29,356 nucleotides of DNA, from the NCBI GenBank assembly GCA_964549075.1, contig CAZJUB010000031.1, positions 1 to 29,356 on the forward strand, in the 5' to 3' direction. Under the pieces are notes generated by a model. The model was not told the DNA's origin and ran no database searches. It saw nothing but the letters and a program-made list of their open reading frames with translations. Position numbers and translations under genes: made by a program. Positions 2,741-23,560 of the stretch are shown in pieces. Numbering within the stretch: position 1 is the stretch's first letter; every line of letters begins with the position of its first letter. Source of the stretch: an uncultured archaeon (GTDB taxonomy: Archaea; Asgardarchaeota; Heimdallarchaeia; Heimdallarchaeales; Heimdallarchaeaceae).

Positions 2741-2745
2741 TAAAG

Positions 2746-4503
2746 ATGATAATTACATGTAACGATTTAATAAAGGTCTACCACGATGAGACCACTGATT
2801 ATAAAGTAGCAGCTCTCAGAGGATTAGATCTCAAAGTAAAGGAAGGAGAGTTAGTCTCGATTATCGGTCCTTCGGGAGCTGGAAAAACTACTTTAGTGAA
2901 AATTCTCTCTGGAATTGAGCTTCCAACTAGTGGAAAAGTTATTATCAATAGTAATGATTTTGCAGTATTGGATGAATTTGAAAGAAGAGAATATCGATTT
3001 TATCATATTGGTCTTATAAATCAATTTACAACTCAGAATCTTTTTACTCATTTAACTGTAAAACAGAACTTGATGGTACCAAAGAAACTCTTCTTTCTTC
3101 CCAAAGAAGAATCTGTTAACGATGTGAATGAACTTCTAAGAGTTTTGAATTTAAGACATGTTGAAAACAACAGAGTAGAGAAACTTTCAGGTGGGGAAGC
3201 TATGAGACTTTCTATGGGAGTAGCCTTAGCTAAAAAACCAGATTTACTCTTGTTGGATGAACCTACCGGGCAACTAGATTCCAAGAATACACAAGACTTG
3301 ATTGAAACTATTAAACAAGTCAATCTAGCTATGGGAAAAACAATCTTAGTTGTGACTCATGACATCAGATACAGAAATGTGTTCGAGAAAAGTTTCGTTA
3401 TAAGGGATGGCAGACTTGTTGGAATTGGTAAAGATATTGGCAAAGATGAATTAGAATTTTTAATGCAGTCTTCTGATATTAACAGGTCTTATATGGATGC
3501 TTCTAATTTTGTGAGAATACCTGATGAAATAAAAGCAATTACAGCTTTGGGGGAAATCGTAGAATTTGACCTTCATCCTTCTAAAAAACTAGGTATTTTC
3601 TGGAATCCTGATGCAATCAATAGAGATAAAATTCTTGATATAATCTCTAATCCAATTGAGAAGTCAGAGACTGAAGTAGAACAAGTTTCTATGGAGGAAG
3701 TAGAAAAACTTCTAAGTAGAGAATTCATTTTTCCAGAAAAATCAAAACCAGTCATAAAAATCAAGGATTTGACTAAAGGTTATCATTCTAGAGCTGGATA
3801 TCATGAAGTTATCTCCAAACTCAACATTGATTTTCATAAAGGAGATTTTGTTTTCATTTCTGGTCCTTCAGGGGTTGGAAAAACTACTTTACTCAATCTT
3901 ATAGCTGGTTTAATCAAACCAGAAAAAGGACAAATAAATATGGATGGATTTTCAATTAATGATTCGTCAGAAAAAGAAACTTCATTATTTCGATTGAATA
4001 ACATTGCTTATATTACCCAACACAACAACTTGTTTACTCCTTTACAAATCAAAGATAATTTTACAATACCCTATTTATTCTCTAAAAAGAAGTTTGATAA
4101 AGAATATGGATTTTCAGTCGCTAAAGAATGTTTTATTGATCATAAGTTAGATGCTTATCCTAGTGAATTATCTGAAGGAGAGAAACAACGTGCAGCTTTA
4201 GCTTCTGCACTAAATAGAAGAACAAGTTTAATACTTGCTGATGAGCCAACAGCTAATCTCGATACTGAATTAGCTAGAAGCATTATGGATTTATTGATGG
4301 ATACAGTTAGAATTAATAATGCAACGATTATAACCTGTTCTCACGATTTAACTTTGCTCCGTCCAGGTTTTAGACACATTAGATTATTAGATGGTCAGGT
4401 ATTAGAAGATAAAAGAGTCACTAAGAAAGACTTGAAGAAAATTGTCGTAGAATATTTACAAATTGAAGAAAATCAAAAGAAGATAAAAAGGAAAACGAAA
4501 TAA
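2746..4503 (+). CDS. ABC ATP-binding protein, LolD/MacB family, with two fused NBDs and an AbrB-like insert
   Basis: Two Walker A motifs (GPSGAGKTT, GPSGVGKTT), two signatures (LSGGE, LSEGE), two Walker B/D-loops (LLLDEPTGQLD, ILADEPTANLD) and two H-switches (THD, SHD). ATG 2746 follows GGAGTGAT; GTG 2737, overlapping the permease stop, is an alternative start. Confidence 0.93.
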   Translation: MIITCNDLIKVYHDETTDYKVAALRGLDLKVKEGELVSIIGPSGAGKTTLVKILSGIELPTSGKVIINSNDFAVLDEFERREYRFYHIGLINQFTTQNLFTHLTVKQNLMVPKKLFFLPKEESVNDVNELLRVLNLRHVENNRVEKLSGGEAMRLSMGVALAKKPDLLLLDEPTGQLDSKNTQDLIETIKQVNLAMGKTILVVTHDIRYRNVFEKSFVIRDGRLVGIGKDIGKDELEFLMQSSDINRSYMDASNFVRIPDEIKAITALGEIVEFDLHPSKKLGIFWNPDAINRDKILDIISNPIEKSETEVEQVSMEEVEKLLSREFIFPEKSKPVIKIKDLTKGYHSRAGYHEVISKLNIDFHKGDFVFISGPSGVGKTTLLNLIAGLIKPEKGQINMDGFSINDSSEKETSLFRLNNIAYITQHNNLFTPLQIKDNFTIPYLFSKKKFDKEYGFSVAKECFIDHKLDAYPSELSEGEKQRAALASALNRRTSLILADEPTANLDTELARSIMDLLMDTVRINNATIITCSHDLTLLRPGFRHIRLLDGQVLEDKRVTKKDLKKIVVEYLQIEENQKKIKRKTK

Positions 4504-4557
4504 TAATTTTCCCACTAAAAGCCTATCTGGGCCTTTCTAATGAGGTTCTATAACCAT

Positions 4558-4582
4558 AGCCTTTAGCGAAGGTTTTTTGTAG
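4558..4582 (+). promoter_or_regulatory. Possible BRE/TATA-like promoter for the 4604 gene, or weak hairpin plus T-tract terminator of ABC operon 1
   Basis: CCTT-TAGCG-AAGG followed by T6, lying about 25-45 nt upstream of ATG 4604. The two interpretations cannot be separated from sequence alone. Confidence 0.3.
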
Positions 4583-4603
4583 ATATTTCACATTTTTAAA
4601 ATC

Positions 4604-7312
4604 ATGAATTCTAAGAAGAAGATTATATTTTTCAGTTTTATTATCTCTCTTCTATTATTGCCATTAGTGTCTTACAGAAATGTAGGAGCTAATTATATAA
4701 TCAGAAATAAGGATATTATTTTACCAGATAATGAAATAAGTTTTTCACCGCCAAAATTCCTACCACCACCTCCATCAAACGGAAGCTATACGGCAGATTA
4801 TTTTGATGGTAGAGGAATAGAATCTGCAAATTTTATATTTAGTGATTTAAGTAACATATTTCCATTAGCTGAAATTCCTTCAAGTAGAATTTGGGATCTT
4901 GTAACTGTTCAATATGCGTTAACTTGCGTAGATATGTTTTTTGTCAACAGAGATCCAAATTACCTAAATAGTGGTAGAGATGCGGTTCAAACTCTCCATC
5001 TTGATATAAATGGTACTTTTATTTTAGGAGAAGATGATGGAGCTTTTTATCACCTTAATGCAGATGAAAATTTATTGTTAGTAATCATGTATAATAGATT
5101 AGCACAAGGTTTTCTCGCAGATGGAGATGCTTTTACAGCTGAATCATTAAGAAATCAAGCTAATTTACTGTTTGCTGATCTTACAAGCTTGTTCTATAGT
5201 ACAACTACAAATACAATTAATTCCACTCTCTTTTTGAGTAAATCTACTTTTGATGTTGTAGGAGTATCTCAAGGAAGCTCAGCTAAAGCAACAGGATTAT
5301 ATTTTATGGCTAATTTCATGAGCAATCAGACATCAACATATTATCCAGAGGCAAAGTTAGCTGTAGACAACTATCGAACAATAGCAAATGCAACTGTCAA
5401 CCTTCCTTCAGGAGATTTAGGATTCCTTTATAGATCTTCAGATGAAATTACTTCTGTTGAATATAATGAAGTAGCTTTACAAGGAAATATCTACCTAAAT
5501 ACAGCACTTATGCAGATAAGTAAATTTGAAGAAATAAATGGTGATTTAGGAGCTAGTGATAATTATTACAATTGGACAAATATGGGAGAAGTAACATTAA
5601 AAGAGTATTTAAAAAGTCCAACTACTAATTTGCTACATACTAAATACAACTTGGTTACTACCATTCTTGAAGATGCAGCTTTAACTTATGAAAATTGTCT
5701 CTATCTCTCTCATGCAATTGAATTCAAAAGATTTAAACTTGAACATACAGGAATAGCACCTTCATTTATTGAAGTTAGTAATCTATTTGAAGCTCTTTAT
5801 ACAAGTGTATTCAATGACCCAGACTACTTTCTTGCAGGTTTGACAAAATCTGGTACTCAACTTGATTTAGTTCCTGATATACCTCATAGTAATCCGCATA
5901 TTGTAAATTATCAAGCTATTACAATGCTGCTCAAACTCTATCCAATGAAATCGATGTTGGTTAGACCTACAGATTTGATTCCAAGTTTACCAATGATTTG
6001 TGATTGGTTCATAGATATCCCAGAAACAAGTTCTATTTTCAAGGCAAGTAACAAAACATTTTCCTTTTATTATGTATTTGATATTTCTTCTAATACTATA
6101 GATAGTATTACATTTCCCGAGAAAAAGAGATTAAACACTACTTCTCTTGACGGGGTGATACTTCAAGGTAGTCAAAAAGTAACACTAAACATTACTTCCT
6201 CTGAAGGTGGAGATCATTTTCTAATATTAAAAGTGAATTTTTCTAATTTCAACATCTTTGATTTTGATTTATTTCTTACTTTCAAAAAACTATTCCGAAT
6301 TTCGACTGAACCTACAAATCCAGAAATGACACAACTTTTAGACAAAGAATTAGTGCTTTCAGTATTCTGTGAAGATGAAATTTCTAGTTCTGTTGCTGAT
6401 GCACAAGTGACTATTTTTGTTGATATATATGAATTTACGGAAATTACAGATAATGGTGGATATGCAACCTTTTTCATTCCAATTGAGACTTTTAATTTTG
6501 CTAAACCTCCCCCAGATTTTGGTGATTACTCAAGTTATAATGCTTCGATTCATATCTCTGTTAACAAACCTGGATTTCTCAGGAAGGATATTGATAGAAA
6601 AGTCATAATTAGATTAAATGAGCTTGTTCTAGATATTAGTCCCGCTCCTGAAGGTAAAGAAGGAAGTGATTTAACTCTATACTTAGACGTGGAAACTAGG
6701 ATAGAAGCTCCTTTATTTAATATAGAAGCTACTATCAGAATAGATGGAATAGATTTCACAGATACAAGTGGATATTCAACCTTTCAATTGCCTTCAACAA
6801 TTATCATAGGAAAGGAATACTTGAAACCTAATGATTGGATTCGAGTAGATGTAACAATGGACATTCCTGGTATGTCTGTCCATACACTCAGTTTTGAAGT
6901 ATTCACTGTTCCATTGCAAACACTTGAACGTATTTACTATTGGCTTGAAATTGCATTTTCCTCCAATGTAGTCAGAGTCTTATGTTCTCTTGGTATTGTT
7001 TGGGCATTATTGTGGAGGCAATTCTCTCTTAAAATACTAAAACGACTTAGACGTTGTCCTTATTGTGGAGATATAACAAAGACAAAGTATCCTTACTGTA
7101 AGAATTGTGGTCTGAAAGATATGACTAAGAAATATAAGAAAGCAGTTCATGATAGTAAAAAGGAACCAAGGATTTTAACTAACGAACGTATGCTTTTTAG
7201 AAGAAAAGATGATAAAGAATCTAATATAAAACAAGACAATTCTAGTTTTGAAGATAATCAAAATAGTTCAAGTCTTGAATCAGATTCCTCCAAAGATGAT
7301 TATCAATTCTAG
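4604..7312 (+). CDS. Large secreted single-pass membrane protein: helical N-terminal domain, Ig-like beta domains, TM helix, cytoplasmic zinc ribbon
   Basis: Signal peptide (MNSKKKIIFFSFIISLLLLP). A helical region about aa 90-450 is followed by a beta-rich region, then a hydrophobic segment (VVRVLCSLGIVWALLW), CPYC-x10-CKNC and a charged/Ser-rich tail. Confidence 0.75.
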   Translation: MNSKKKIIFFSFIISLLLLPLVSYRNVGANYIIRNKDIILPDNEISFSPPKFLPPPPSNGSYTADYFDGRGIESANFIFSDLSNIFPLAEIPSSRIWDLVTVQYALTCVDMFFVNRDPNYLNSGRDAVQTLHLDINGTFILGEDDGAFYHLNADENLLLVIMYNRLAQGFLADGDAFTAESLRNQANLLFADLTSLFYSTTTNTINSTLFLSKSTFDVVGVSQGSSAKATGLYFMANFMSNQTSTYYPEAKLAVDNYRTIANATVNLPSGDLGFLYRSSDEITSVEYNEVALQGNIYLNTALMQISKFEEINGDLGASDNYYNWTNMGEVTLKEYLKSPTTNLLHTKYNLVTTILEDAALTYENCLYLSHAIEFKRFKLEHTGIAPSFIEVSNLFEALYTSVFNDPDYFLAGLTKSGTQLDLVPDIPHSNPHIVNYQAITMLLKLYPMKSMLVRPTDLIPSLPMICDWFIDIPETSSIFKASNKTFSFYYVFDISSNTIDSITFPEKKRLNTTSLDGVILQGSQKVTLNITSSEGGDHFLILKVNFSNFNIFDFDLFLTFKKLFRISTEPTNPEMTQLLDKELVLSVFCEDEISSSVADAQVTIFVDIYEFTEITDNGGYATFFIPIETFNFAKPPPDFGDYSSYNASIHISVNKPGFLRKDIDRKVIIRLNELVLDISPAPEGKEGSDLTLYLDVETRIEAPLFNIEATIRIDGIDFTDTSGYSTFQLPSTIIIGKEYLKPNDWIRVDVTMDIPGMSVHTLSFEVFTVPLQTLERIYYWLEIAFSSNVVRVLCSLGIVWALLWRQFSLKILKRLRRCPYCGDITKTKYPYCKNCGLKDMTKKYKKAVHDSKKEPRILTNERMLFRRKDDKESNIKQDNSSFEDNQNSSSLESDSSKDDYQF

Positions 7313-10095: not shown

Positions 10096-12195
10096 TTATA
10101 TCTTATTTCTCAACACTATCTCTCTATTATAATCTGGGATCAAAATCTCCTTATGTTCTTTTCTTAACACAGTGTTATTAGGTGTATGTACCATTATTTT
10201 TTTACCTTCTATTTGGGAAATAAATCCATTTAATGAATCTGAATTTGTATGCCCACTTATCGGTGCAGAAAAGATTTTTTGGTGGTAGCGGTTTTTAGCT
10301 ACTGGTAAAGAATTTTGTAATGCAAATCCTAAAGTATCTGGAGCTTGATATCCACATAATAAAACTCCAGTATTTTCATCGTCTTTTGTATCATCAAGTA
10401 AATTCCTTACTGTTCCACCCTGAAGCATACCATGACCTGATACAACTATGTCACCTTCTTTGAAATTGTCAATAGATACATCTTTAACAATATCATATTT
10501 GCCTTTAATTCCCATAACCTTGGAGACTTCAGCAGCTAGACCTGTTGTTTTGATATTTTTGTTCTTTGAAATTCTCAACCTTTCTAAACGTTTAATCATC
10601 TCTTGTGTTCTACCTACTGAAAAAGCTGGTATAATTAATCTACTAGAAGTTTCTGCAGCTTGAAGAATAACAGTGTTTGGATCAGTTTTCGGGGTAGGTC
10701 TATTATAATAGGTTCCATCAAAGATTGTAACGTCACTATCAGTTGGAAAATTAGCTCCTTCAAATAATTCACTGGAATCTAAAGAGAAATCTCCAGTGAA
10801 GAAAATACTCTTACCAAAAACATCGATTTTATATCCGCAACTCCCAAAGACATGAGACGCATGATATGGTGATACTTCAAAACCTGGGCTCACTTCAAAA
10901 GTTTCATTAGGTGTAAGAGTATTATGAACATTAAAAAGATTGATTAAATGAGATTTTTTGAGATAAGTAGATTGCAGCGGAGAAGCCTTTTTCTTTGTGA
11001 TTCCATTCATTTTTATTATCGAACTAGTTGATTGTAATAGTTTCTCAGTCAAAATTTTTGTTGATTGAGTTGAATACCATTGTTTTCCATTTTCAGGAGT
11101 AATCAAATAAGGTAATCCTCCTGTATGATCAAGATGTGCATGAGTAACTAGGATGGCTTTAACATACTTCAGAGAAGGATGCCACCTTGGAATAGAGTTA
11201 TTTGATACACTCATCCCATAATCAATTAAAATCGCATTGTTATCATGTTGAATCAGAATACCCATATTACCAATATTTCCGCCACCGAGGAAAGTAATAC
11301 GTATTTTTTGTGCAACTGATGGACTGGAATAAGCTTGAATTGAAGCATATTCTTTGATAAGATCTTTAGGGAATTGAGCTAACTTTTCCATTGAAGCAGC
11401 TTTCGCATTAATATTGGAAAGATGACTCTGTAAAATTGGATCTACTACAGTAGGAACTACTGGAAATTTGTTCTCTTTATATTTGTTTTCTATCTTTTTT
11501 TGAAATTCTGCCATAGAAATTTTCTTTTTTAATTTAATTTCATTACTGAGATGTTTAGAATAATAATATGCTAAATCGTTTAATAGTCTCTGGTCAACAT
11601 GAAAATCAAGATATTTCAGAAGTTTAGGAGAAATTGAACTTGCTATCTCTTCTAAATATTGGGATCTATTCTTAAGATTTGATAAAATCCTATCTACTTC
11701 TCTTCCTATTTCTTTATCTTCATCTTTCAAGATTTCTTTCGATATGTTTTTTTGAGTTATTTTGGAAAAAGTAGAAAATTTTTGTGGTTTAACTCCTAGT
11801 TTTCTTATGTATTCTAAAAACGCATAATAATTGTATTTAATTTTCTTTTTGTTTGTATAAAGCCAAAAACTGTATACTAATATTTCTTCATCTAAAATAA
11901 GATTTGTTTCAAGTTCTTGGATAACTGCTCTATAGATTTCAAAGTTTATTGCATTGAGCCAATATAGAGTGAATAAGTAATATTCTGATACAGCTGAGAA
12001 ATTTTCTGTTAATCCTACCCATGCAATATCAAAAATGTTCATAATGTTAGAATTTTGACAAATGAAATAAGGATCCTTACTAATCTTTAGATATTCTTTA
12101 CAATCTTGGTAAATTTCATGATAAGTCTTCTTAAGTTTTAAGTCTGGTTTTAGTTTCATAAGAAATTCTAAGTAATTTGTCATATCGTTTGTCAT
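10096..12195 (-). CDS. MBL-fold beta-CASP ribonuclease (CPSF73/aCPSF-related) with a roughly 290-aa unassigned N-terminal extension
   Basis: ITFLGGGNIG, LIDYG, THAHLDH, SHVFGS, FTGDF, PAFSVGRTQE, GMLQGG, GYQAPDTLG, SGH and VH motifs all lie in the C-terminal 400 aa. Confidence 0.88.
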   Translation of the reverse strand: MTNDMTNYLEFLMKLKPDLKLKKTYHEIYQDCKEYLKISKDPYFICQNSNIMNIFDIAWVGLTENFSAVSEYYLFTLYWLNAINFEIYRAVIQELETNLILDEEILVYSFWLYTNKKKIKYNYYAFLEYIRKLGVKPQKFSTFSKITQKNISKEILKDEDKEIGREVDRILSNLKNRSQYLEEIASSISPKLLKYLDFHVDQRLLNDLAYYYSKHLSNEIKLKKKISMAEFQKKIENKYKENKFPVVPTVVDPILQSHLSNINAKAASMEKLAQFPKDLIKEYASIQAYSSPSVAQKIRITFLGGGNIGNMGILIQHDNNAILIDYGMSVSNNSIPRWHPSLKYVKAILVTHAHLDHTGGLPYLITPENGKQWYSTQSTKILTEKLLQSTSSIIKMNGITKKKASPLQSTYLKKSHLINLFNVHNTLTPNETFEVSPGFEVSPYHASHVFGSCGYKIDVFGKSIFFTGDFSLDSSELFEGANFPTDSDVTIFDGTYYNRPTPKTDPNTVILQAAETSSRLIIPAFSVGRTQEMIKRLERLRISKNKNIKTTGLAAEVSKVMGIKGKYDIVKDVSIDNFKEGDIVVSGHGMLQGGTVRNLLDDTKDDENTGVLLCGYQAPDTLGFALQNSLPVAKNRYHQKIFSAPISGHTNSDSLNGFISQIEGKKIMVHTPNNTVLRKEHKEILIPDYNREIVLRNKI

Positions 12196-12279
12196 AATTT
12201 ATGTCCTTCTAAATAATAAATAATAAAATATAATTATAGTTTTAATTTTAATTTAATAAATCAAAGAAGAAAGAGTTTT

Positions 12280-13173
12280 CTAATCTTCCTTAGTATCACT
12301 CTCAAGTAAGCTACTAAAAGCATCTCTTAGTTCATCTTGTAATGCTTCTTTCATCACTTTAGTTGATTTAGCTGGTACTGCTGGTGCAGACGATGGAGTG
12401 AAATCTTTTTCTTCTTCTTCGTCTTCTGTGAGTCTAGAAGCTCTTTTAGCTAAAGCATCTTTTACTTCCATATTGAGTGCCATAGATGCAGGCATAGAGC
12501 CTCCTCCTCCTACTGCAGCTTGCCTTTCTTGTCTGTGCTTCTCTGGATCGACTTTTGTAAGTCCTGCTCGAATATCTTGGATATCATCAGCACTTACACC
12601 AAATGGACTGAAAGAAGCTGGTGCTGGACCTCCTGCTGGGTCTCCTAATCCATCCGGTCCTGAAGTTGGTTCTGGTGCTTTCTGTAAATTTGCTGCAGCT
12701 TTTAACAAATCAGCACTACTGATACCAGCACCAGTTGCTCCTTGTGCTCCAGAAGGAGCTGGCATTGCACTCAAATCTGGCGCACCTGAATTTGCACTCA
12801 CTGCAGCAGTAAGATTTGGTGCGCTAGGTGCAACTGATAAGTTCGGTGCACCGATAGGTCCTGAATTTGTTAAATTAGGCGCTGCTGCTGAAACTGTTGT
12901 AGGCGCTGCTGCAGGAGTTGCTGCAGGAGCTGCTGAACGAACAGATAAAGTTGGTGCTACACTTGGTGAAGCTGCTACTCCTAATGCTCTTTCCACAGCG
13001 CTTATCCTCATATCTAAAGTATTAATATAATCCTCCATCCTCTCTGTTGATTTAACCATTATCGCTCCGAAATTTTCAATCAATCTAGTAAGCTTCATTA
13101 TGGCTTTCTTAGAGGGTTCCGAACTACCTGATAAGAGGCCATCTAGATAATCATCAATTGACACATGTATCAT
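12280..13173 (-). CDS. Pro/Ala-rich protein with N-terminal coiled coil, two WH2-like repeats and a VCA-like C-terminus (candidate actin regulator)
   Basis: Long ORF with GGAG 5 nt upstream of ATG 13173 and a TTTTATA box further upstream. Repeats GISSADLLKAAANLQKA and GVSADDIQDIRAGLTKV are followed by ALNMEVKDALAKRASRL-TEDEEEE. The CDS is secure; the function is inferred. Confidence 0.6.
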   Translation of the reverse strand: MIHVSIDDYLDGLLSGSSEPSKKAIMKLTRLIENFGAIMVKSTERMEDYINTLDMRISAVERALGVAASPSVAPTLSVRSAAPAATPAAAPTTVSAAAPNLTNSGPIGAPNLSVAPSAPNLTAAVSANSGAPDLSAMPAPSGAQGATGAGISSADLLKAAANLQKAPEPTSGPDGLGDPAGGPAPASFSPFGVSADDIQDIRAGLTKVDPEKHRQERQAAVGGGGSMPASMALNMEVKDALAKRASRLTEDEEEEKDFTPSSAPAVPAKSTKVMKEALQDELRDAFSSLLESDTKED

Positions 13174-13175
13174 GT

Positions 13176-13202
13176 AAACTCCAAAAATGTGATATAAAAA
13201 CT
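13176..13202 (-). promoter_or_regulatory. Putative TATA box and Shine-Dalgarno-like motif upstream of the WH2-like gene
   Basis: The minus strand reads AGTTTTTATATCACATTTTTGGAGTTTACATG: TTTATA about 20-26 nt and GGAG 5 nt before the ATG. Confidence 0.4.
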
Positions 13203-13248
13203 CTATGTTATTCCTCAAAACAAAGGCTAATGCGTAATTCTTGAATTC

Positions 13249-14271
13249 CTATTTTTCTAACTCAGAAATGGCTTCTAGCACAGTTTCAATGTGCTCAGTT
13301 GTTATTCCATAGTAAGTAACCATTCTAAAAAGTTGTTCTCCCATATTTGTAACAAGAACACCTTTATTCTTCAATCTATCATCTACATCAGCAGCTGAAA
13401 GATTACTCTTTGAAGTATCAATAATCACTATATTTGTATCGACAGGTTTGACAATAAAATCTTCAACTTCATTTAATCTCTTCCCAAGTAACTGAGCATG
13501 TTTATGATCTTCTGCTAATCGGTCTATCATGTTATTAAGAGCATAAATTCCTGGAGCAGCAATGATACCTGCTTGACGCATACCTCCTCCAACAACTTTA
13601 CGATTTCTTCTAGCTCTATGAATGAATTCTTCAGTACCTACTATGAGAGAACCTATAGGGCAACCTAAACCTTTACTCAGACAGATTTGGACACTATCAA
13701 CGTTTTCAGCAAATTTAGACGCTTTCATACTTGATGCTACTGTTGCATTAAATAGTCTAGCTCCATCAAGATGAACTGCACCACCATTATCATGAGCTAT
13801 TTTAGATAAGGAGTCAATATTGTCCTTTGGAATGATTTTACCTCCTCCTCTGTTATGGGTGTTTTCTAGACAAAGTAATTTTGGTGTCACTTTATGGATA
13901 TTATATGAAGCAGTGAAAATAGTATCAACATCCTTAGGATTCATTTGACCATTATCTCCTTCAACTAACAGAGGAAAACTACCACTAATTTGAGATATTC
14001 CTCCAACTTCATACATATTAATGTGACTCTCTTTTTCTAAAACTACTCCATCTCCTCGGTTTAAATGCGTCATATGTGAAACTAAATTTCCTTGAGTACC
14101 ACTTGTAACAAGTAATCCCGCTTCCTTTCCTAGCATTTTTGCAATTAACGCTTCGAGCTCAATTACTGTTGGGTCTTCCCCCCAAACATCATCTCCTAGT
14201 TTAGCTTGCATTATTGTTTCCATCATTTCTTTGGAAGGTAATGTGAAGGTATCTGAACGTAAGTCAATCAT
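13249..14271 (-). CDS. ltaE: Low-specificity L-threonine aldolase (PLP-dependent)
   Basis: MIDLRSDT, GDDVWGEDPT, SGTQGN, LENTHNRGGG, HLDGARLFNA, CLSKGLG (PLP lysine) and GGGMRQAG. Confidence 0.95.
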   Translation of the reverse strand: MIDLRSDTFTLPSKEMMETIMQAKLGDDVWGEDPTVIELEALIAKMLGKEAGLLVTSGTQGNLVSHMTHLNRGDGVVLEKESHINMYEVGGISQISGSFPLLVEGDNGQMNPKDVDTIFTASYNIHKVTPKLLCLENTHNRGGGKIIPKDNIDSLSKIAHDNGGAVHLDGARLFNATVASSMKASKFAENVDSVQICLSKGLGCPIGSLIVGTEEFIHRARRNRKVVGGGMRQAGIIAAPGIYALNNMIDRLAEDHKHAQLLGKRLNEVEDFIVKPVDTNIVIIDTSKSNLSAADVDDRLKNKGVLVTNMGEQLFRMVTYYGITTEHIETVLEAISELEK

Positions 14272-15023: not shown

Positions 15024-15806
15024 ATGAAGATTTTCAAAATCTATTCTGAATATGCTAGAGCTTATCATGAGATGTACCAATCAATTTTTGATTATGAAGA
15101 GGAATTTAAAATCTATGATAAATATCTTTCAAAGATTAAAGCAAAGAAAGTTTTAGAACTCGGTTGTGGTAGTGGGAATTTAGCTAAATATTTTATTAAC
15201 AATAGCTACGAATATACAGGTTTAGATAGTTCTAAAGAAATGATCGCTCTAGCTAGGGAGTTTGTTTCAAATGGTAATTTTCTTCTTGGAGACATGCGTA
15301 ATATGGACCTACAAGAAACTTTTGATGCTGTTTTGGTTACAGGTAGAACCTTCACTCATATGACTACAAATCATGATGTAATGTTTGCACTTAATTCAAT
15401 TCATGAAGTACTCAATCATGAAGGTTGGTTAATTTTTGACAATTTTGATGCATCAGTAATTTTCACTGATTTTAGAGAAACTTCACAACATAAAGCAAGT
15501 TATGAAAATAGAAAATATCTAAGAACAAGTGAAACATCTTTTAATTTGGAACATGGCTGGACTTGGAATTGGAAATCTCATTATGAAATCTATGAAAACG
15601 AGAAAATAGATGAATTTGATGATGAAATAACTCTGAGAGCTTTTACAGAAGATGAACTTCGTTTGTTTCTTAGAATCAATGGATTCAAAGTCTGTAATAT
15701 GGAGAAATCTGCAAACGCAATACTTACCGTAGCTCAAAAAATAAATGAAAAGAAAACTAATGCTCAAAATATTTATTTCAAGCAGAAGTTAAATAATATT
15801 GATTAA
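15024..15806 (+). CDS. Class I SAM-dependent methyltransferase
   Basis: VLELGCGSG motif I, GLDSSKEMI, GDMRNM, FDAV and LNHEGWLIFD. Confidence 0.92.
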   Translation: MKIFKIYSEYARAYHEMYQSIFDYEEEFKIYDKYLSKIKAKKVLELGCGSGNLAKYFINNSYEYTGLDSSKEMIALAREFVSNGNFLLGDMRNMDLQETFDAVLVTGRTFTHMTTNHDVMFALNSIHEVLNHEGWLIFDNFDASVIFTDFRETSQHKASYENRKYLRTSETSFNLEHGWTWNWKSHYEIYENEKIDEFDDEITLRAFTEDELRLFLRINGFKVCNMEKSANAILTVAQKINEKKTNAQNIYFKQKLNNID

Positions 15807-17344
15807 TGGAATTTAACTGGTTCCGGGAGCTTATCTATATACTTTAGAAATGGTTCTGGCCAATTCTTCTGATCTAAACCTTTTTGTGAAATGAAAGCTG
15901 TTAGGAATCTTTCAAACGATCCACCACCGCATCCTGACCATAATTCAATATTTCCCTCAGCTTTAACAGAGAATCCTTTTGGATATTTGGTCCCAATGAT
16001 AGATATATTCTGAATTTCTAACCATTCACTTTCTTCCCTAGAGCCACGGTAAGGCATGTAAGCTTCAAAATCTATTGTTCCAACCAAATCAGTCTCGCGA
16101 TCCATTTTCTCTTCAGTTGCTGACTGTTGTAACCACCATGGCATAACTTGAGCCTCTCTAACTTCTAAATCTAAAACTTCATTGAAAATTATCCTGAGCT
16201 TATCTCTAACTTCTGTGCCTATTTTTTTAGCTTGTTTTGGTGAGCCAATAAAGAGGGTTTCAATACGATGAAGCTCGTCCACTCTTTCGAAACCATATGC
16301 AGAACCTGCTTCGTATCGATAAGTAGGTCCCGACCAGTCATAAATTTTAATAGGAAGGCTTTTCTTAGCTAATGTTCTACCTTGTAACCATGCCCAAAAT
16401 GGAGGACATTGTGCATAAGAGAGACCACCAATTGGAGCAGTGACTTTTTCGCCTATTTTTTCATAAGGGATAGTTTTGGTAATTGTGATATAATCAGCAA
16501 TTTCTTCAAAATATTCTGGAGTGGGTTCTTTTGGTTGAACAACAAAGTAAGGTTCAAAACCTCCTTGATACATTCCTTCAGCATGTTCAGATCGTAACCA
16601 AATTGACCAATCTACTAATTTTGGAATCATCATCTGATAGAATTCTAAAGGCTTGTAAACATAATCTACCATTATTTGTTTCATCGCTTCAGCTAGAGTT
16701 GTTAATGTTGGTGAGAGAATCCATTGGTTACGATAATTTGTTCTTTGTATCCAATTCGCTTCTTGCATCATAGTTGTAGGATTTTCGTCTGTAAAGAGCT
16801 TTTTTTCTCCACTGGTCCAAACTATTTCATGATGTTCTTTCTTCGCTCCATAGTGCTGTTTTACTGCTTTATCGTTAACTCTACGCATAATTCTTTCTAT
16901 AGTGCCTTTTTCGACAAAATCTTCAGAAATGTCAGGATCAATTTCTACTTTAGCAAAGTTTTTGTTATCCTTCTTACTGAATTCGATTTTTTTAGTTAAA
17001 GGAAGTGTAAATTCTTCTAGAGGTTCTACTTCAATCTCTGTCTCAATGGTATATTTATTAAATTTGAAACCTCGCAATCCAACACGATACTTTCGTCCTA
17101 TAATGTCTGCTAGTTGTTTTCGGATTCTAAGAATAGCAACATGAGGAGGAAGAGAGTTTACAGAAGCTATTACAAAACTAAGTTGATCATCTGATGTGTT
17201 GATATTTGTAATTGCAAATTCTCCGTCTTTACGGTTTTCTAAAGTTTTTTCTACGAATTGGTTGAAGAATTCTTTTAAATCTTCGGAGCTCTCAGCTGGG
17301 AGTGGATTACTCAAAGTGAAAGCAGCAGCTAAGTAGTGTTTCAT
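15803..17344 (-). CDS. serS: Serine--tRNA ligase, methanogen-type (type 2, zinc-dependent)
   Basis: YAQCPPFW, motif 2 YRYEAGSAYGFERVDELHRIE, WLEIQNISIIGTKYPKGF and motif 3 LWSGCGGGSFER. The N-terminal domain is mixed alpha/beta (RKYRVGLRG) rather than the bacterial-type coiled coil. Confidence 0.92.
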   Translation of the reverse strand: MKHYLAAAFTLSNPLPAESSEDLKEFFNQFVEKTLENRKDGEFAITNINTSDDQLSFVIASVNSLPPHVAILRIRKQLADIIGRKYRVGLRGFKFNKYTIETEIEVEPLEEFTLPLTKKIEFSKKDNKNFAKVEIDPDISEDFVEKGTIERIMRRVNDKAVKQHYGAKKEHHEIVWTSGEKKLFTDENPTTMMQEANWIQRTNYRNQWILSPTLTTLAEAMKQIMVDYVYKPLEFYQMMIPKLVDWSIWLRSEHAEGMYQGGFEPYFVVQPKEPTPEYFEEIADYITITKTIPYEKIGEKVTAPIGGLSYAQCPPFWAWLQGRTLAKKSLPIKIYDWSGPTYRYEAGSAYGFERVDELHRIETLFIGSPKQAKKIGTEVRDKLRIIFNEVLDLEVREAQVMPWWLQQSATEEKMDRETDLVGTIDFEAYMPYRGSREESEWLEIQNISIIGTKYPKGFSVKAEGNIELWSGCGGGSFERFLTAFISQKGLDQKNWPEPFLKYIDKLPEPVKFH

Positions 17345-17435: not shown

Positions 17436-19175
17436 TTAGTTGTTATTATTTTCTTCGATCTGAAGATATTCTTTCAAAATCATTCTCAACGATTGCATGG
17501 TTACTCTTGAATCTTCTACGATTTTTCCATCTGATATTCTGATATGCCTAAAACCAGGTCTAAGTAAAGAAAGATCATGTGAGCACATGATGAAGGTTGC
17601 ATGATATTCTTCTACTGCATCAATTAAAACATCCATCAAAGCTCGAGCTAAATCTGAATCCATATTTGCTGTAGGTTCATCAGCTAGCAAAATTTGAGTC
17701 TTTCTACTAAGAGCTAAAGCTAAAGTTGCTCGTTGTTTCTCTCCTGCACTTAATTCGTCAGGATATGAATCCAGTTTGTGCACAATATGACATTCTTTTG
17801 CTACAGCTTCTCCCATTTTAGGATCATATTTCTTACCCAAGAAAAGGTAAGGAATTAACAAGTTATCTCTTAACTCAATTGGTTCAAATAAACTGTGATA
17901 TTGAGTAATATAAGCTGTATTTGCTAATCTAAAATCAGATCTAGCTGTATCATCAGCATTGCTTATTTTAAATCCGTCTACGGTGATCTCTCCTTCATCA
18001 GGAGTAAGTAATCCAGCAATAAGATTCAACAGAGTGGTTTTTCCCACACCTGAAGGTCCAGAAATAAAAATAAAATCACCTTTCTTGATATTCAAATCTA
18101 CACCTTTAATCACTGGATAATTCTTTCCAAAGATTCTATAACCTCTATGAACACCTTTTATTTTTACAATTGTTTTTGCTTTTTCACTGTGTTTGAATTC
18201 TCGTTCAAATAGATAATTAAGGTCTTCAAAAGATAATTCATCTACTTTATCAGAATACTCTCCAGGAGGTTGTTTCAGAATATTGTAAACCTCCTCTTTT
18301 GTAACTAAATCTGGATTCCACATCATAGCAAGCTTCTTGGAAGGATGAACATCAAATTCTGCTACATCTCTGATTGCAGCTGATGATTTGATTTTATCAG
18401 GTATCTGGATAAAATTGGAAGGATCTATATAAACAGTGTTCAGAACTGAAGCATCTTTTAAGAAATCTAATTGAGATTTATCAGCTTCATGTCCAACTCC
18501 TACTAGTCTACCATCTCTGATAAGGAAACTTTTCTTGAAAGCATTACGATATCGTACATCATGGGTTACTATCACCATGGTAGTTCCTAATTCTTCATTT
18601 ACTTCTTTCAGGTTTTCAATAATTTCGAAAGTGTTGGTACTATCAAGTTGTCCTGTAGGTTCATCAGCCAGAATAAATTGAGGTTGTCGTGCAAGTGCAA
18701 CTGCAACAGATAGTCTCATAGATTCACCACCACTGAGCTTCGCTGCTTTATTATTTTTAACGTGTTGAAGGTTAAATAGTGTCAGAAGCTCTTCCATTTC
18801 TTTTCTAGAAATTTCTCTTGGAGTGTGCTTCATCTTCATTGGCATAAGTAGATTATCTCTAGCAGTTAGGTTAGAAAAAAGGTTTTTACTAGTAAATTGG
18901 TTAACAAGCCCTATGTGGTCATATCTAAACTTTCTTCTTTCTTTTTCATTTAATCTATCTAGTTGTACACCACCAATAAGAATCAATCCACCTGTGGGAA
19001 CATCTGTTCCAGAAAGTAGGTTGATTAAAGTGGTTTTTCCTGCTCCTGAAGGACCGATGATGGAGACTAACTCTCCGTCAGCTACATCCAAATCAAGTCC
19101 TCTGAGGGCTGAAACCTTATAATCAGTAGTTTTGTCATGATAAATCTTTATTAAGTCTAAGCATCTTATTCCCAT
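17436..19175 (-). CDS. ABC ATP-binding protein, LolD/MacB family, with two fused NBDs and an AbrB-like insert (paralog of 2746-4503)
   Basis: NBD1 has GPSGAGKTT, LSGGE, ILADEPTGQLD and THD; NBD2 has GPSGVGKTT, LSAGE, LLADEPTANMD and SHD. It is colinear with the 588-aa protein over its full length. ATG 19175 follows GGAGTGAT; GTG 19184 is an alternative start. Confidence 0.93.
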   Translation of the reverse strand: MGIRCLDLIKIYHDKTTDYKVSALRGLDLDVADGELVSIIGPSGAGKTTLINLLSGTDVPTGGLILIGGVQLDRLNEKERRKFRYDHIGLVNQFTSKNLFSNLTARDNLLMPMKMKHTPREISRKEMEELLTLFNLQHVKNNKAAKLSGGESMRLSVAVALARQPQFILADEPTGQLDSTNTFEIIENLKEVNEELGTTMVIVTHDVRYRNAFKKSFLIRDGRLVGVGHEADKSQLDFLKDASVLNTVYIDPSNFIQIPDKIKSSAAIRDVAEFDVHPSKKLAMMWNPDLVTKEEVYNILKQPPGEYSDKVDELSFEDLNYLFEREFKHSEKAKTIVKIKGVHRGYRIFGKNYPVIKGVDLNIKKGDFIFISGPSGVGKTTLLNLIAGLLTPDEGEITVDGFKISNADDTARSDFRLANTAYITQYHSLFEPIELRDNLLIPYLFLGKKYDPKMGEAVAKECHIVHKLDSYPDELSAGEKQRATLALALSRKTQILLADEPTANMDSDLARALMDVLIDAVEEYHATFIMCSHDLSLLRPGFRHIRISDGKIVEDSRVTMQSLRMILKEYLQIEENNNN

Positions 19176-19180
19176 TTTTA

Positions 19181-22100
19181 TCACTCCAGGTTCCTTGGTA
19201 GATATTTCGCATAATTCGCTTTCATAGAGAAGTAGAATATGGTCATAAATAATAGTGGCGCTATAATATACGCAATTATTAGTGCAGCGATATTAAAATC
19301 TATCAAGTAATGAATACCTGCATAGAAGTAATTCTTAACTACTACATTAAACAGAACAATCAGACCAAAAGCTGCCCCGGTGCCTATTACAGCTCCTGGA
19401 ACCACTCCTGCAAAGAATGTCTCTAGCATCGTTAATTTGATTATCCGTTTAGTAGATATTCCCATTTTCTTCAATCTGTCATTCTTATTTGTTCTCTGTT
19501 GTAAGATTTTCAAAGGATTGCTGATGCTTATGTATACAATTGCGATCAGACAGATTAATATTGAAAGAACAAATTCTGCTGCTATAATATTAAAGAATGG
19601 GAAGTTTTCAAATTTTATCTGTTCTATCTCTTCAGCTGAACTTTTTACTGTCAATCCAAGTGCATCTTGTATCTGCTCCTTGACTTGAGCGTCATCATAT
19701 CCTTCACTCACTTTAATTAAAATTCTATCATTAACATTTTCTCCTGAAGGACCGGGATGAATTATTGGCTTGATTATTGCATAATTGCTTTCTGTCATTA
19801 ACATAGCTGCAATTCTGGGGGTTTTTCCTGCAACATACTCTCCAACAGTGTAGAATACGGGTAAATATTCAAATTCTCCTTTAATAGTGTAAGTTGCAGA
19901 TAATTGAGGAGCTACTTGTGTAAAAGTAAATGTACTTGCAAAATCTGCAAAATCTTTATCAAAGACATAAGTGACCATCATAGTACTATTTCCTTCTAAT
20001 TGTGAGATACTATTGTCCCAATTTTTGAACATCCTACTAGGTGGTTTATATGACGTAGCCAAGTATTCCGTTATATTCTCAATAAGATAAACTTGAACAA
20101 CATCATAATTTACCATTGCTCCTTCAATTTCTCTCACAAGTGCTGTACTTTCTACACCAGTTACATTCCTTAGTATAGGAAGCACTTCAGAGACATTCAA
20201 ATTCAGCCAATTATTGATGTATAAATCAGCTCCATTGTAGAAATAAGTATCTTTATCAAAATTCAACTGCATAGAAGTTGGACTTATTATAGAGGGTAGC
20301 GTTATTCCTATAATGAGTAGAAATGCTAAATAGATATTTTTGAATAATTTAATGTCTGATCTTATTTCAATTAAACTAAATGTACTTAATGATTTTCTAA
20401 TCCTCCAAGATATCTTACTTATCGCTATCATCAGTATAGAGAATAAGTCTTTAAGTAATAGTCCTAATCCTAAGAAGACTAGTAAAACTCCTAGACCTGC
20501 TAAATAGATGAAAATCATAAGTATAGATATACTAGAAGAATCTCCTATGTTTGCGTACAATAATTGGTACAATGCTAGAGATCCCCATGCAATTCCTCCT
20601 CCTGCTACAATAAAGATAATTGGAGGTAATCGTATCTGTTTGAATAAAGTAGCAATTCTTTGGGGAGTTTTCTGGAAACCTATTCTTTTTGTCTTAGACA
20701 TTTTCCAAATTTTTGGTAGTGCTATAAAAATTAATCCAAGCAAAGTCACAGCAATTGCGACACCCACACCAGAAAATTTGAGAGCTGTTCGAGGTCCATT
20801 GAAGGTAATGAAAGAATCAACTCTTAGAAGAGCAGGAGATAAAGCTAAAGAGATTCCGAATCCTATACCGACAGCAAAGATGGATTCTATAAACTTAAGT
20901 CCGATGTAATTTGAAGCAATCCTCGTTGATTTTACACCTTTAGATTGGAAAATTTCAATCTCTTGCTCTAAACTTTGTGTATAAAGTTCGTTTGTCTCCG
21001 CAATCAGAAACATTGCAATGTAAATAATTGGCATGGCTAAAGTGAAAAACAAGAAAATTGAAGAATTGAGTCTAGGTTCAAGGATATCCAACATTGCTGA
21101 TAACTCTCCTGAATAATCCCACTTTGAATTACGGTAAATAGGTTCAAAACTAAAATCTGTATCTTGCCTTCTTTTAAGATCAGCATTTTCTTGACTTAGC
21201 TGAGCAAGCTGATTTGGAGACATCTTACTGAAATCATATTTAAATTGAACACTTGTTTCAACAAACATATAGTACGGGTATAGCCCGTCAAGATTATCCC
21301 AAGCTAAATCTCCAAAAGCTACTATAGCTCCAAACCAACCTTGTAAAGAATCGACTAAATCCAAAGGTAAGTCATAATTTTCCCAGAAGTTTGTATAGTT
21401 GGATCCAGTTGGAAGATCATAAGCTCCAACGATTTTTAAAGTTACATTAGTGTCTCCAGGATTAGTATTATAAGAATTAATTTGTGATCCCCATAAGGTG
21501 AAACTATCATTCACATCCAAATCTAGTAGGCCATCTGTTTCAAGAAGCTCATTACTGACTATGACTTCTCCTTTAGCTTCTGGCATCCTTCCTGCTACAA
21601 GAAGCTCACTGATAGGAGCTGAGTAATTGTTTGATATACTGATGTAATTTTCGTTAAAATAATGGGTTCCATTTATGTTAGGATTATCAATAGTAACATA
21701 AAATGCTGACATATATTCAAAGTCGGAAATAATACTAGCTAAAACAGGATAATTCATATAAAATTCTGTCAAAACCTCTCCAATAGCTATTTTCTCAAAA
21801 TTCTTTAATAAAGGATTTCTTGAACCAAAACTGGATGTATCATAATTTAATGACATGGTCATACTTGGTGTTCCATTATCTTGTAAATCTATTCTAGCTG
21901 AATACTCATTAAGTAAAACACCTTGTTTTGAACTATAAACTGTTGTACTTGTAATAACAATAACTGCAAATATAGTCATACCAATAAGATTCATCAAATG
22001 TCTCTTCTTATTAGTTTTAAAAAGCGTGAAAACAGCGGATGTAGAGTTAGATATCCAATACCATAAATTCGTAAATAAAAGAAATAATTTTGATTGATTT

Positions 22101-23560
22101 CCATTAAAGGAACGTTGAAAGAATTTTTTCAAATTGATATAACTGACTTTTACTCGTTTACGGAATATAACTAAAGTTATGCCTACAACAGCTAATATAG
22201 CTACTATGTAAACGCCAGCTGAAAGCCAGAAAATATATAGAGCGCTGTAAATATAGATCTGTGATACGTGTAAATCGAAGAATGATCCTAAATTGACAGC
22301 AGTTGAAACATAATAACCTATCAGATTATTTTTATTAAGTTTTACACCTTGAATCTCATCGTTTTCTACAGCTGTTGAGTGTACATAGATACGCTCACCT
22401 GTTAAGGTTTCTTGTAAACTGAACGAATGCAATTTGGTGTTTTTAGGAACGTTATAGATGTCAAATTTCTCTACTTCATATATTCCTGTGTAATTGTCTC
22501 TAATTATGGAAATTGTTGATTTCAATTTGTCTCCTTTGAAAAATTCATCATATTCTAAATATGGTACAGAACTAAAGATGTATTCCGTATAACCGTCTTT
22601 TTCTTGAATAGTAAAGCTATCATAATCAAAAATTCCAAAATTAACTGATGTAAAGTTATCGAAAGTTGTTGTCTCATATTCAGTGTATCTTAAGGTGTAT
22701 AGGATTGAATTTCTTGCTAATGCAAGATTGAATACACCATCTTCAGTAACAAAGAAACGGGGATCAAATCCTCCTTCGTGTAAAACCATAGTATTAGTTA
22801 TGTTAGATACTCCTGTAGTAGCATTAGCAGCTGTAGTGATGTAAAAATGGTCAGATACATATTGGTAAATGTATTGATAACCTGTATAGACCATACCATT
22901 TTGATAATACATTTCCAGCATATAGTCAAACTCCTCATCTGCAACCCAAGTTGTTCTAACTTCTTCTGTATACCATAGATTTGTTTCATTGTCTCTATAG
23001 ATTTTATAGAACTGGTATGCTGTATCTGCGTTTTCTGAAGTCGGAGGGAAATTTTCTATAAATGTTAAGAACATATCAAAATGTGTGGGACCATCTTGAA
23101 AGACTCTAATATGCGGGTAATTAGCTCTAGAGTTATATTCATAAAACTCAAAATCAGTTCCTCCATCTTCAGGTGTCCAAGTATACATACGGAAGAAAGT
23201 TATATCATAGAAAGCATGATAAGCGTAGAGTAGAGCAATACCACCTTCTACTTCATAAACTTCAAAAAAGTCTAGAGGATATCTTTCTACTATAACTAAA
23301 TCAGACTCGTCATTAACTACATGAATTATTTTAAACGTATCATTGTCATATGTTATCTTAGCGAAAAAATGAAAATTATCAAATTCGTCAAATATCATCC
23401 TAGTTTCTATATTTTCTTCCTCCCCAGTTCTTTCTGTAAGTAGAAATAGTTTTTCACTTGAATCACTAGTTGCAGCTCTAGTATTTTTTACAAGAAAAAT
23501 CGAACTAGTAATAAATAACATGATGATTGTAACTACTGTAATTTTCTTTTTTATGTTCAT
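19181..23560 (-). CDS. Giant MacB/FtsX-type ABC permease with an additional N-terminal extracellular beta-rich domain
   Basis: Signal peptide, about 410 aa of aromatic/beta-rich sequence, a TM helix, then a MacB-like core (GRMPEAKGEVIVS, LKIVGAY, QEIEIFQSKGV, GADLYI, LKKMGIS). It ends YAKYLPRNLE, like its paralog (FAKYMPKNLE). Confidence 0.88.
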   Translation of the reverse strand: MNIKKKITVVTIIMLFITSSIFLVKNTRAATSDSSEKLFLLTERTGEEENIETRMIFDEFDNFHFFAKITYDNDTFKIIHVVNDESDLVIVERYPLDFFEVYEVEGGIALLYAYHAFYDITFFRMYTWTPEDGGTDFEFYEYNSRANYPHIRVFQDGPTHFDMFLTFIENFPPTSENADTAYQFYKIYRDNETNLWYTEEVRTTWVADEEFDYMLEMYYQNGMVYTGYQYIYQYVSDHFYITTAANATTGVSNITNTMVLHEGGFDPRFFVTEDGVFNLALARNSILYTLRYTEYETTTFDNFTSVNFGIFDYDSFTIQEKDGYTEYIFSSVPYLEYDEFFKGDKLKSTISIIRDNYTGIYEVEKFDIYNVPKNTKLHSFSLQETLTGERIYVHSTAVENDEIQGVKLNKNNLIGYYVSTAVNLGSFFDLHVSQIYIYSALYIFWLSAGVYIVAILAVVGITLVIFRKRVKVSYINLKKFFQRSFNGNQSKLFLLFTNLWYWISNSTSAVFTLFKTNKKRHLMNLIGMTIFAVIVITSTTVYSSKQGVLLNEYSARIDLQDNGTPSMTMSLNYDTSSFGSRNPLLKNFEKIAIGEVLTEFYMNYPVLASIISDFEYMSAFYVTIDNPNINGTHYFNENYISISNNYSAPISELLVAGRMPEAKGEVIVSNELLETDGLLDLDVNDSFTLWGSQINSYNTNPGDTNVTLKIVGAYDLPTGSNYTNFWENYDLPLDLVDSLQGWFGAIVAFGDLAWDNLDGLYPYYMFVETSVQFKYDFSKMSPNQLAQLSQENADLKRRQDTDFSFEPIYRNSKWDYSGELSAMLDILEPRLNSSIFLFFTLAMPIIYIAMFLIAETNELYTQSLEQEIEIFQSKGVKSTRIASNYIGLKFIESIFAVGIGFGISLALSPALLRVDSFITFNGPRTALKFSGVGVAIAVTLLGLIFIALPKIWKMSKTKRIGFQKTPQRIATLFKQIRLPPIIFIVAGGGIAWGSLALYQLLYANIGDSSSISILMIFIYLAGLGVLLVFLGLGLLLKDLFSILMIAISKISWRIRKSLSTFSLIEIRSDIKLFKNIYLAFLLIIGITLPSIISPTSMQLNFDKDTYFYNGADLYINNWLNLNVSEVLPILRNVTGVESTALVREIEGAMVNYDVVQVYLIENITEYLATSYKPPSRMFKNWDNSISQLEGNSTMMVTYVFDKDFADFASTFTFTQVAPQLSATYTIKGEFEYLPVFYTVGEYVAGKTPRIAAMLMTESNYAIIKPIIHPGPSGENVNDRILIKVSEGYDDAQVKEQIQDALGLTVKSSAEEIEQIKFENFPFFNIIAAEFVLSILICLIAIVYISISNPLKILQQRTNKNDRLKKMGISTKRIIKLTMLETFFAGVVPGAVIGTGAAFGLIVLFNVVVKNYFYAGIHYLIDFNIAALIIAYIIAPLLFMTIFYFSMKANYAKYLPRNLE

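Follow-up and report, generated by a model that had tools for sequence, protein, structure and literature searches.

The window analysed here, that is, the whole stretch of 29,356 nucleotides of contig CAZJUB010000031.1, belongs to the genome of an uncultured Heimdall-group archaeon (3.2 Mb in 217 contigs, about 32% G+C, estimated to be 89.7% complete). Its minus strand carries a gene for a protein of 297 amino acids in which two conserved short helices resemble the WH2 motif with which eukaryotic proteins bind actin monomers, and for that reason the protein is a candidate archaeal actin regulator. The initial annotation had placed the two peptides at 12726-12676 and 12600-12550, separated by a Pro/Gly-rich spacer of 25 residues. 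Both statements are borne out: the minus-strand translation reads GISSADLLKAAANLQKA and GVSADDIQDIRAGLTKV at these positions and PEPTSGPDGLGDPAGGPAPASFSPF between them. Each peptide forms part of a longer conserved module (Table 1).

Both peptides lie within one open reading frame (ORF; 12280-13218, minus strand). Judged from the sequence, translation most likely begins with the ATG at 13173, because GGAG stands seven bases upstream of it and because the starts of orthologues coincide with it: full-length orthologues all begin at MI[HQ]VSIDDYLD, with ATG, GTG or TTG as the initiating codon. The minus frame is taken to be the coding one because it is conserved, with in-frame changes of length among orthologues; an ORF of 210 amino acids on the opposite strand (12398-13030, plus strand) was considered and rejected as a by-product of GC-rich Ala/Pro codons.

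Table 1. Features of the gene and its product. Column identities are segment means over the genus-level alignment of 20 sequences.
Feature	Residues	Window positions	Strand	Sequence	Basis	Column identity
Whole gene	297 aa	12283..13173	-		ORF and start analysis; stop codon 12280-12282	
N-terminal helical region	1-66	12976..13173	-		AlphaFold2 helices 6-14, 22-63	0.85
Ala/Pro/Ser-rich disordered (Pro/Ala) region	67-147	12733..12975	-		pLDDT <50	0.55
Four [AG]P[ND]L[ST] copies		12868-12879, 12835-12846, 12808-12819, 12769-12780	-			
WH2-like module 1	150-168	12670..12726	-	GISSADLLKAAANLQKAPE	Predicted helix 153-164, conservation	0.86
First peptide, part of module 1		12676-12726	-			
Variable Pro/Gly spacer	169-187	12613..12669	-		pLDDT <50; length varies among orthologues	0.48
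WH2-like module 2 with conserved tail	188-217	12523..12612	-	FSPFGVSADDIQDIRAGLTKVDPEKHRQER	Predicted helices, conservation	0.88
Second peptide, part of module 2		12550-12600	-			
Basic amphipathic helix	226-247	12433..12498	-	SMPASMALNMEVKDALAKRASR	Predicted helix 229-249	0.90
Acidic run ending in Phe	248-259	12397..12432	-	LTEDEEEEKDFT		0.55
C-terminal helix with acidic end	270-294	12292..12366	-	STKVMKEALQDELRDAFSSLLESDT	Predicted helix 270-294	0.98

The module is an amphipathic helix of 10-12 residues running into L-x-K-[V/A], and the two peptides are, on the strength of profile comparison, copies of one conserved, reusable short element. The initial annotation had read them as a repeat in register from this one protein, and taken that way the match is not significant: ungapped, the two 17-mers share 6 identities and have a BLOSUM62 score of 27, a value attained when residues 140-297 are shuffled in 273 of 1000 cases, so that within the protein alone their likeness is no better than chance. 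A hidden Markov model (HMM) of motif 1 likewise gives motif 2 no score. It is the homologues that restore the repeat: hhalign aligns the profile of 11 instances of motif 1 with that of 11 instances of motif 2 from columns 1-23 to columns 1-23 (probability 87%, P 3.9e-6), in precisely the register first proposed. Intermediate forms also exist. Heimdallarchaeum proteins have three copies, of which the middle one begins like the last but carries the tail seen in the first, LQKAPVQQ, and in one genus module 1 ends in LQKVDPEQLKKE, which resembles the tail of module 2. The pattern drawn from the two peptides in the initial annotation matches twice in the window ORF and nowhere else among the 3493 ORFs of at least 100 amino acids in the genome.

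The genus has 24 other genomes, and orthologues, 62-78% identical, are present in 20 of them. When 20 sequences are aligned, G150, A160, L163, K165 and P167 of module 1 are invariant, as are S189, P190, G192, S194, G204, L205, K207, V208, H213, R214, E216 and R217 of module 2; conservation of L156 and of I198 is at least 90%. The conserved hydrophobic positions are L156, A159, A160 and L163 in module 1, and I198, I201 and L205 in module 2. The modules are thus conserved islands flanked by variable spacers. Free variation of the hydrophobic and LxKV positions among homologues had been named in advance as the outcome that would tell against a WH2 reading; across the 20 orthologues it is not seen, because conservation of the core positions is complete or at least 90%, and it is the spacer that varies freely.

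How far does the family extend? Searched with a profile of the 20 orthologues, a set of 1.84 billion representative proteins yields only 13 matches at E<=1e-3; run on 400 Asgard genomes, the profile finds members in 26 of the 30 genomes of one GTDB family, in all five of its genera, and only six weaker matches outside that family. Inspection of these weaker matches, and of those to a motif-level profile, reveals the same architecture in two further families of the order. All of the 23 public contigs that carry relatives are Asgard metagenome-assembled genomes (20 titled Candidatus Heimdallarchaeota archaeon, 1 Promethearchaeati archaeon and 2 complete Candidatus Heimdallarchaeum). By these searches the gene family is confined to one archaeal order; among Lokiarchaea it was not found. 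No family name exists for any member in any source checked, and NCBIfam returned nothing above noise.

Throughout this range (the five genera and the two further families) the core [IL]-x2-[AVI]-x3-L-x-K-[VAI] is kept, often as an exact LKKV, in 1 to 3 copies per protein; in 33 aligned module instances the Leu is invariant and the Lys at least 90% conserved. Some orthologues, like Heimdallarchaeum, have LKKV in module 2 itself. A 5'-truncated homologue (G026) has three GPNLGGAPSG repeats and the modules DDLQAALSSLKKV, EDAIKGALSSLKKV and EGVIKSALSSLKSV, two of which read SLKKV. In genus g4 the motif profile matches in 3 of 3 genomes, and the two homologues examined there have PPNL repeats, one module (SAIAEALSSLKKAP), a helix AVLSELSQVLQRRRQR, an acidic run and the terminal helix. 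Family f4 has a single module, with SLKKA.

The module is also reused in another protein that this genome encodes. A regular-expression scan of the ORFs found IKDVKAGLKKV in a protein of 907 amino acids (G000:C15:25993-28713, minus strand; locus L083:1994-4714, minus strand; referred to below as the array protein). Its N-terminal 300 residues consist of 8-9 strict repeats of 28 residues, DL-x3-I-x-D-[AV]-x3-L-x2-[VIL], several of which read GLKKV, GLKKL or NLKKV, and one EIKDVKAGLKKV; the HMM of motif 2 matches this protein (E 1.5e-4) and nothing else among 4819 ORFs. The array is followed by a middle part without assignment and then by a TPR-like end (weak scores). AlphaFold2 models the array as separate helices without a compact fold (predicted local distance difference test, pLDDT, 65.8; predicted template modelling score, pTM, 0.20). 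Orthologues occur in 11 of the 24 other genomes of the genus.

The available portion of a description of WH2 (PMC7407642) gives as its hallmark a segment of 9-10 residues, helical in the barbed-end cleft of actin, followed by LKK(T/V) with variations: the helix of WIP presents L36, L37 and I40, with LKKT at 46-49, the second WH2 of WIP reads LRST, and the lysines face D24/D25, E99/E100 and E334 of actin. Predicted helices within disorder fit that hallmark as far as it is described there, and helices 153-164 and 195-205 of the window protein are amphipathic and flanked by residues with pLDDT below 50. The resemblance to the WH2/beta-thymosin class (PF02205; WIP, WASP, thymosin-beta4) extends to the general plan, a short amphipathic helix in disorder leading into a Leu-basic-basic-Val/Thr-type stretch, single or in tandem, downstream of Pro-rich sequence. 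What follows the helix is LQKA or LTKV in the window protein and LKKV, LKKI, LKKA or LTKI in orthologues and relatives. An exact LKKV thus stands in relatives, and the window copies depart from it; in WIP, a departure such as LRST is accepted.

A number of observations weigh against the assignment of the modules to WH2. 1) The window copies, LQKA and LTKV, have one basic residue each and are not LKK[TV]. 2) The spacing is unlike that of WIP, because the Leu directly adjoins the helix and the usual linker before it is missing: I201 to L205 is 4 residues, against 6 from I40 to L46 in the portion of the WIP description already cited, and the alternative register, I198 to L205, gives 7 against the same 6. 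AlphaFold2 keeps L205 inside the helix. 3) The distant homologue P0012 has, in place of module 2, a motif without LxK. 4) The strict 28-residue period in the array protein could be that of a structural repeat. 5) Sequence models of WH2 do not recognize the modules. With PF02205 (cut-off 23.1 bits) the window protein, 11 homologues and 5 repeat arrays have no match at E<=10, the whole array protein has none at E<=1, and a six-frame search of the genome (E<=10) finds nothing at this gene; the model has only 28 positions, and most matches with E above about 0.1 are lost in the filters of HMMER. Searches of PDB chains gave 0 matches with a profile of the 33 module instances (A3), 2 unrelated matches with a profile of the C-terminal half of 12 homologues (A5), and 16 unrelated matches with phmmer and a homologue as query, no WH2, thymosin or WASP chain among them. 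By such models, formal membership in the WH2 family fails. What stands of the WH2-likeness first proposed is the helix, its hydrophobic face, LxK[VA] and the tandem arrangement; the Pfam model, the PDB profiles and the spacing do not bear it out. Also unlike WH2/beta-thymosin motifs, module 2 has a conserved tail, DP[DE]xH[KR]KER, for which we know of no counterpart among them.

(The sole PF02205 match in the genome, ALLEAITTGNSAVNSDLGNLKKT at G000:C11:26142-26216, minus strand, locus L052, scores 13.2 bits and was judged a chance match: it lies within a mostly helical, low-complexity frame of 1262 amino acids.)

Comparison by protein language model gives the one positive outside signal. In the ESM Atlas the nearest named cluster to residues 145-297 consists of WHAMM fragments, of which 81% carry the WH2 family of Pfam; the same family or clan is shared by 7 of the 10 best matches that have a name. 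Because the score is weak (0.75), the similarity is a lead only. The whole protein matches only unnamed archaeal clusters (0.84), which is of low value for recognition.

The closest comparison within the Asgard archaea is with their two-domain gelsolins (2DGel), in which, according to the available portions of the structural reports, an LKKT-like stretch lies on actin in crystal structures (PMC9433394; 10.1101/2025.11.30.690169) and the barbed-end cleft of actin is used (PMC9433394). As far as these texts extend, that is the only WH2-like element so far described in Asgard archaea. Actin from rabbit is among the substrates of Asgard gelsolins (PMC9433394). In the gelsolins, however, the motif extends a folded gelsolin domain, whereas the modules of the window protein have an amphipathic helix of their own, are repeated, and stand free in a disordered protein without a gelsolin domain. 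The open full-text literature, in the portions available and with subscription journals outside the scope of the search, yields no stand-alone WH2 protein in archaea and places WH2-like elements only inside gelsolins.

The rest of the protein has a layout that its relatives share: a coiled-coil-type N-terminal helix, [AGP]PNL repeats, 1-3 modules, a basic amphipathic helix, an acidic run and a terminal helix with an acidic end. AlphaFold2 (mean pLDDT 56.9) predicts helices at 6-14, 22-63, 153-164, 195-205, 210-222, 229-249 and 270-294, and residues 68-151, 165-189 and 252-267 are nearly all below pLDDT 50; as modelled, the protein is a largely disordered scaffold specific to the Heimdall group. 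Foldseek, run with this low-confidence monomer model against the PDB, found no related fold (3 matches, all with E>5). The long N-terminal helix reaches pLDDT of about 78-89 across residues 21-60 and draws from Pfam only weak matches of coiled-coil type; from the model, helix 22-63 probably forms a coiled coil or serves for oligomerisation. No part of the protein is better conserved than the terminal helix, STKQMKEALQxELRDAFSSLLESD, which can still be recognised in families f3 and f4. For neither the N- nor the C-terminal helix was a relative detected outside the family.

The PNL-type repeats look like a second, separate short motif, since they precede the modules in every relative examined (as APNLS, as PPNL in family f4, and as GPNLGG in G026); P110, N111, L112 and S113 are invariant within the genus. 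PNLS and PNLT are also N-x-S/T sequons; N-glycosylation was set aside, no signal peptide or membrane segment being visible by eye at the N-terminus. The basic helix reads AVLSELSQVLQRRRQR and ALLSEVKAAQQRRSQR in distant relatives. The acidic run is present in 12 of the 12 sequences of alignment A5, and the Phe that follows it is kept in genera g1, g10 and g12 and absent in g13 and family f4.

A candidate partner of the appropriate kind is at hand. The genome encodes an actin of 378 amino acids (G000:C18; locus L002:1495-2628, minus strand) that scores 448 bits on Pfam Actin and shares about 60% identity with actins of animals and plants; among solved structures it is closest to 9wc4_A, 'HC1 actin' (654 bits). 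Across the genus this actin is 97-100% identical, and about half of the genomes have a second copy, 82-85% identical. Aligned to a eukaryotic actin chain, it keeps SLYASGRTTG, WIGGSILSSL.TF and FAGEDQPR, stretches that belong to the barbed-end cleft and the acidic patch. There is also a second actin-fold protein (191 bits). Known regulators are represented by two two-domain gelsolins with FLKHF in the linker (one further match lies below the Pfam cut-off); the profilin model of Pfam finds no match in the genome.

The elements downstream of the modules invite comparison with the W-C-A module, in which a central amphipathic helix with basic residues is followed by an acidic stretch with a conserved Trp. 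Tandem-WH2 nucleators and W-C-A proteins include Spire, Cobl, VopL/VopF, N-WASP and WHAMM. Like these, the window protein and its relatives place 2-3 motifs in a row with short spacers and have a putative oligomerising element; as in W-C-A, a basic amphipathic helix and an acidic run, both present and conserved, follow the modules. Unlike W-C-A, the acidic part has no Trp, and no homology to these proteins is detectable by sequence. As to the Arp2/3 complex, on which W-C-A units would act, and with the genome 89.7% complete, an ARPC4-like ORF of 163 amino acids (G000:C1:28299-28610, minus strand; locus L023:1480-1971, minus strand) scores 30.8 bits against a Pfam cut-off of 22.2, ARPC3 finds no match in the genome, and a complete Arp2/3 complex was not found there. 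The ARPC2 and ARPC5 models find none either, nor did they match in any control genome, so that these two nulls do not show absence.

A possible link to the WASH complex was pursued and rejected. The N-terminal helices of two Heimdallarchaeum homologues score on CCDC53 (WASHC3, PF10152), that of Heimdallarchaeum endolithica at 25.5 bits (cut-off 24.6) and that of H. aukensis at 20.9, but the window protein does not, nor do 9 other relatives. Six-frame searches give no score above the cut-off in any of 47 genomes, and matches in 5 of 14 control genomes that are unrelated; the helix also matches coiled coils of viral fusion proteins. The signal was judged to be coiled-coil noise because most relatives are negative, none of the 47 genomes passes and the unrelated controls do match.

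What, then, might this protein do? If the modules act like WH2/beta-thymosin motifs, each would bind an actin monomer; if the N-terminal coiled coil brings several chains together, the protein would hold several actin monomers close, and it might then serve as a monomer-delivering, sequestering or nucleating factor. Contact with actin, oligomerisation and an effect on polymerisation are what we infer. That the modules bind actin monomers from a multivalent scaffold is a tentative proposal, and the doubts about it are substantial. It gives the most coherent explanation, drawn from architecture and context, of what is found at this locus; we would nevertheless put it forward with reserve.

The most durable competitor, itself somewhat unlikely, holds that the modules, as short linear motifs, serve some partner that is not actin and that their likeness to WH2 is convergent or superficial. 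That partner might be some other machine specific to Asgard archaea, a receptor built of TPR or other helical repeats, or the terminal helices of the protein itself. The failure to detect a WH2 model or a solved WH2 chain sits comfortably with such a role, as does the lack of any link to actin among the neighbouring genes (below), and the array protein ends in a TPR-like region, that is, a peptide-binding fold. Because the N- and C-terminal helices (0.85 and 0.98) are conserved as well as or better than the modules, the main business of the protein may lie elsewhere. No search, however, points to any other partner; disorder, Pro-rich repeats, 1-3 copies of the motif, LKKV, and a basic helix with an acidic run make up the combination found in actin-monomer binders, and the organism has the actin to match.

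Perhaps, on the other hand, there is no specific ligand: the protein would have a structural or spacer role, with low complexity and a coiled-coil character, and the modules would be helical stretches in it that are conserved because they favour solubility or self-association, with a match to WH2 that arose by chance. Chance is not hard to invoke: the in-register match is at chance level within the protein, LKK[VT] by itself occurs 59 times in the ORFs of the genome, the best match of Pfam WH2 in the genome is an evident accident in a long helical protein, and Foldseek finds no related fold. Position-specific invariance between freely varying spacers, kept in several families while copy number changes, is not expected of spacers, and we regard this account as unlikely.

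That the protein works as a WASP-family-like nucleation-promoting factor, its modules, basic helix and acidic run forming a W-C-A unit on an Arp2/3-like assembly, is very unlikely: the order of elements is kept across three families, with a helix that ends basic (KRKSR, QRRRQR) before the acidic run and a Phe after that run in three genera, and the ARPC4-like ORF, the second actin-fold protein, the WHAMM fragments of the ESM Atlas and the one relative that passes the CCDC53 cut-off can all be cited for it, but ARPC2, ARPC3 and ARPC5 are unmatched (two of them without control matches), no Trp follows the acidic run and the Phe is missing from g13 and f4, the PDB profile search retrieved no WASP-family chain, and the CCDC53 signal looks like noise.

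The genes on either side of the gene are one for a threonine aldolase-type lyase upstream and one for a beta-CASP nuclease downstream, an arrangement kept as far as Heimdallarchaeum; they offer no functional hint and no tie to actin. One metatranscriptome run contains two contigs of 151 bases identical to 12467-12617, which spans module 2, and to 12744-12894, and no contigs over the flanking 11800-12466 or 12895-13700. This is a weak hint that the gene is transcribed, weak because DNA can be carried over into a metatranscriptome. Elsewhere the window contains two similar gene sets (212-7312, plus strand, and 17436-23560, minus strand), each with a duplicated-ABC ATPase (588 and 582 amino acids); these ATPases adjoin very large proteins, of 842 and 902 amino acids without family and of 1459 amino acids with a weak FtsX-like end. 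Also encoded are a membrane protein with a VTT domain (23872-24774, plus strand) and a class-II aminoacyl-tRNA synthetase with a tRNA_bind_4 N-terminal domain (15803-17344, minus strand), which we take to be the seryl-tRNA synthetase of methanogen type.

The regulators of Asgard actin named in the available portions of a 2024 review (PMC12050087) and of a more recent report (10.1101/2025.11.30.690169) are profilins and gelsolins only, and nucleation of filaments is not addressed there. If the modules do bind actin, a free-standing, repeated WH2-like module would constitute a third class of Asgard actin regulator, carried on a scaffold whose layout resembles that of nucleation factors in eukaryotes. 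The archaeal class to which the host belongs is the one placed closest to the eukaryotes. One can go further and think of the family as an archaeal counterpart, ancestral or convergent, of the nucleation-promoting factors of the WASP/WAVE/WASH type, driving nucleation in Heimdall-group archaea, either alone by tandem binding of monomers or jointly with the ARPC4-like and ARP-like proteins that these genomes encode; this is a long shot. Should the modules bind something else, the family would still be a conserved hub, specific to the order, that brings together four or more distinct short motifs. Should they bind actin, the origin of WH2-based actin assembly would become testable with a few peptides and one protein of 297 amino acids.

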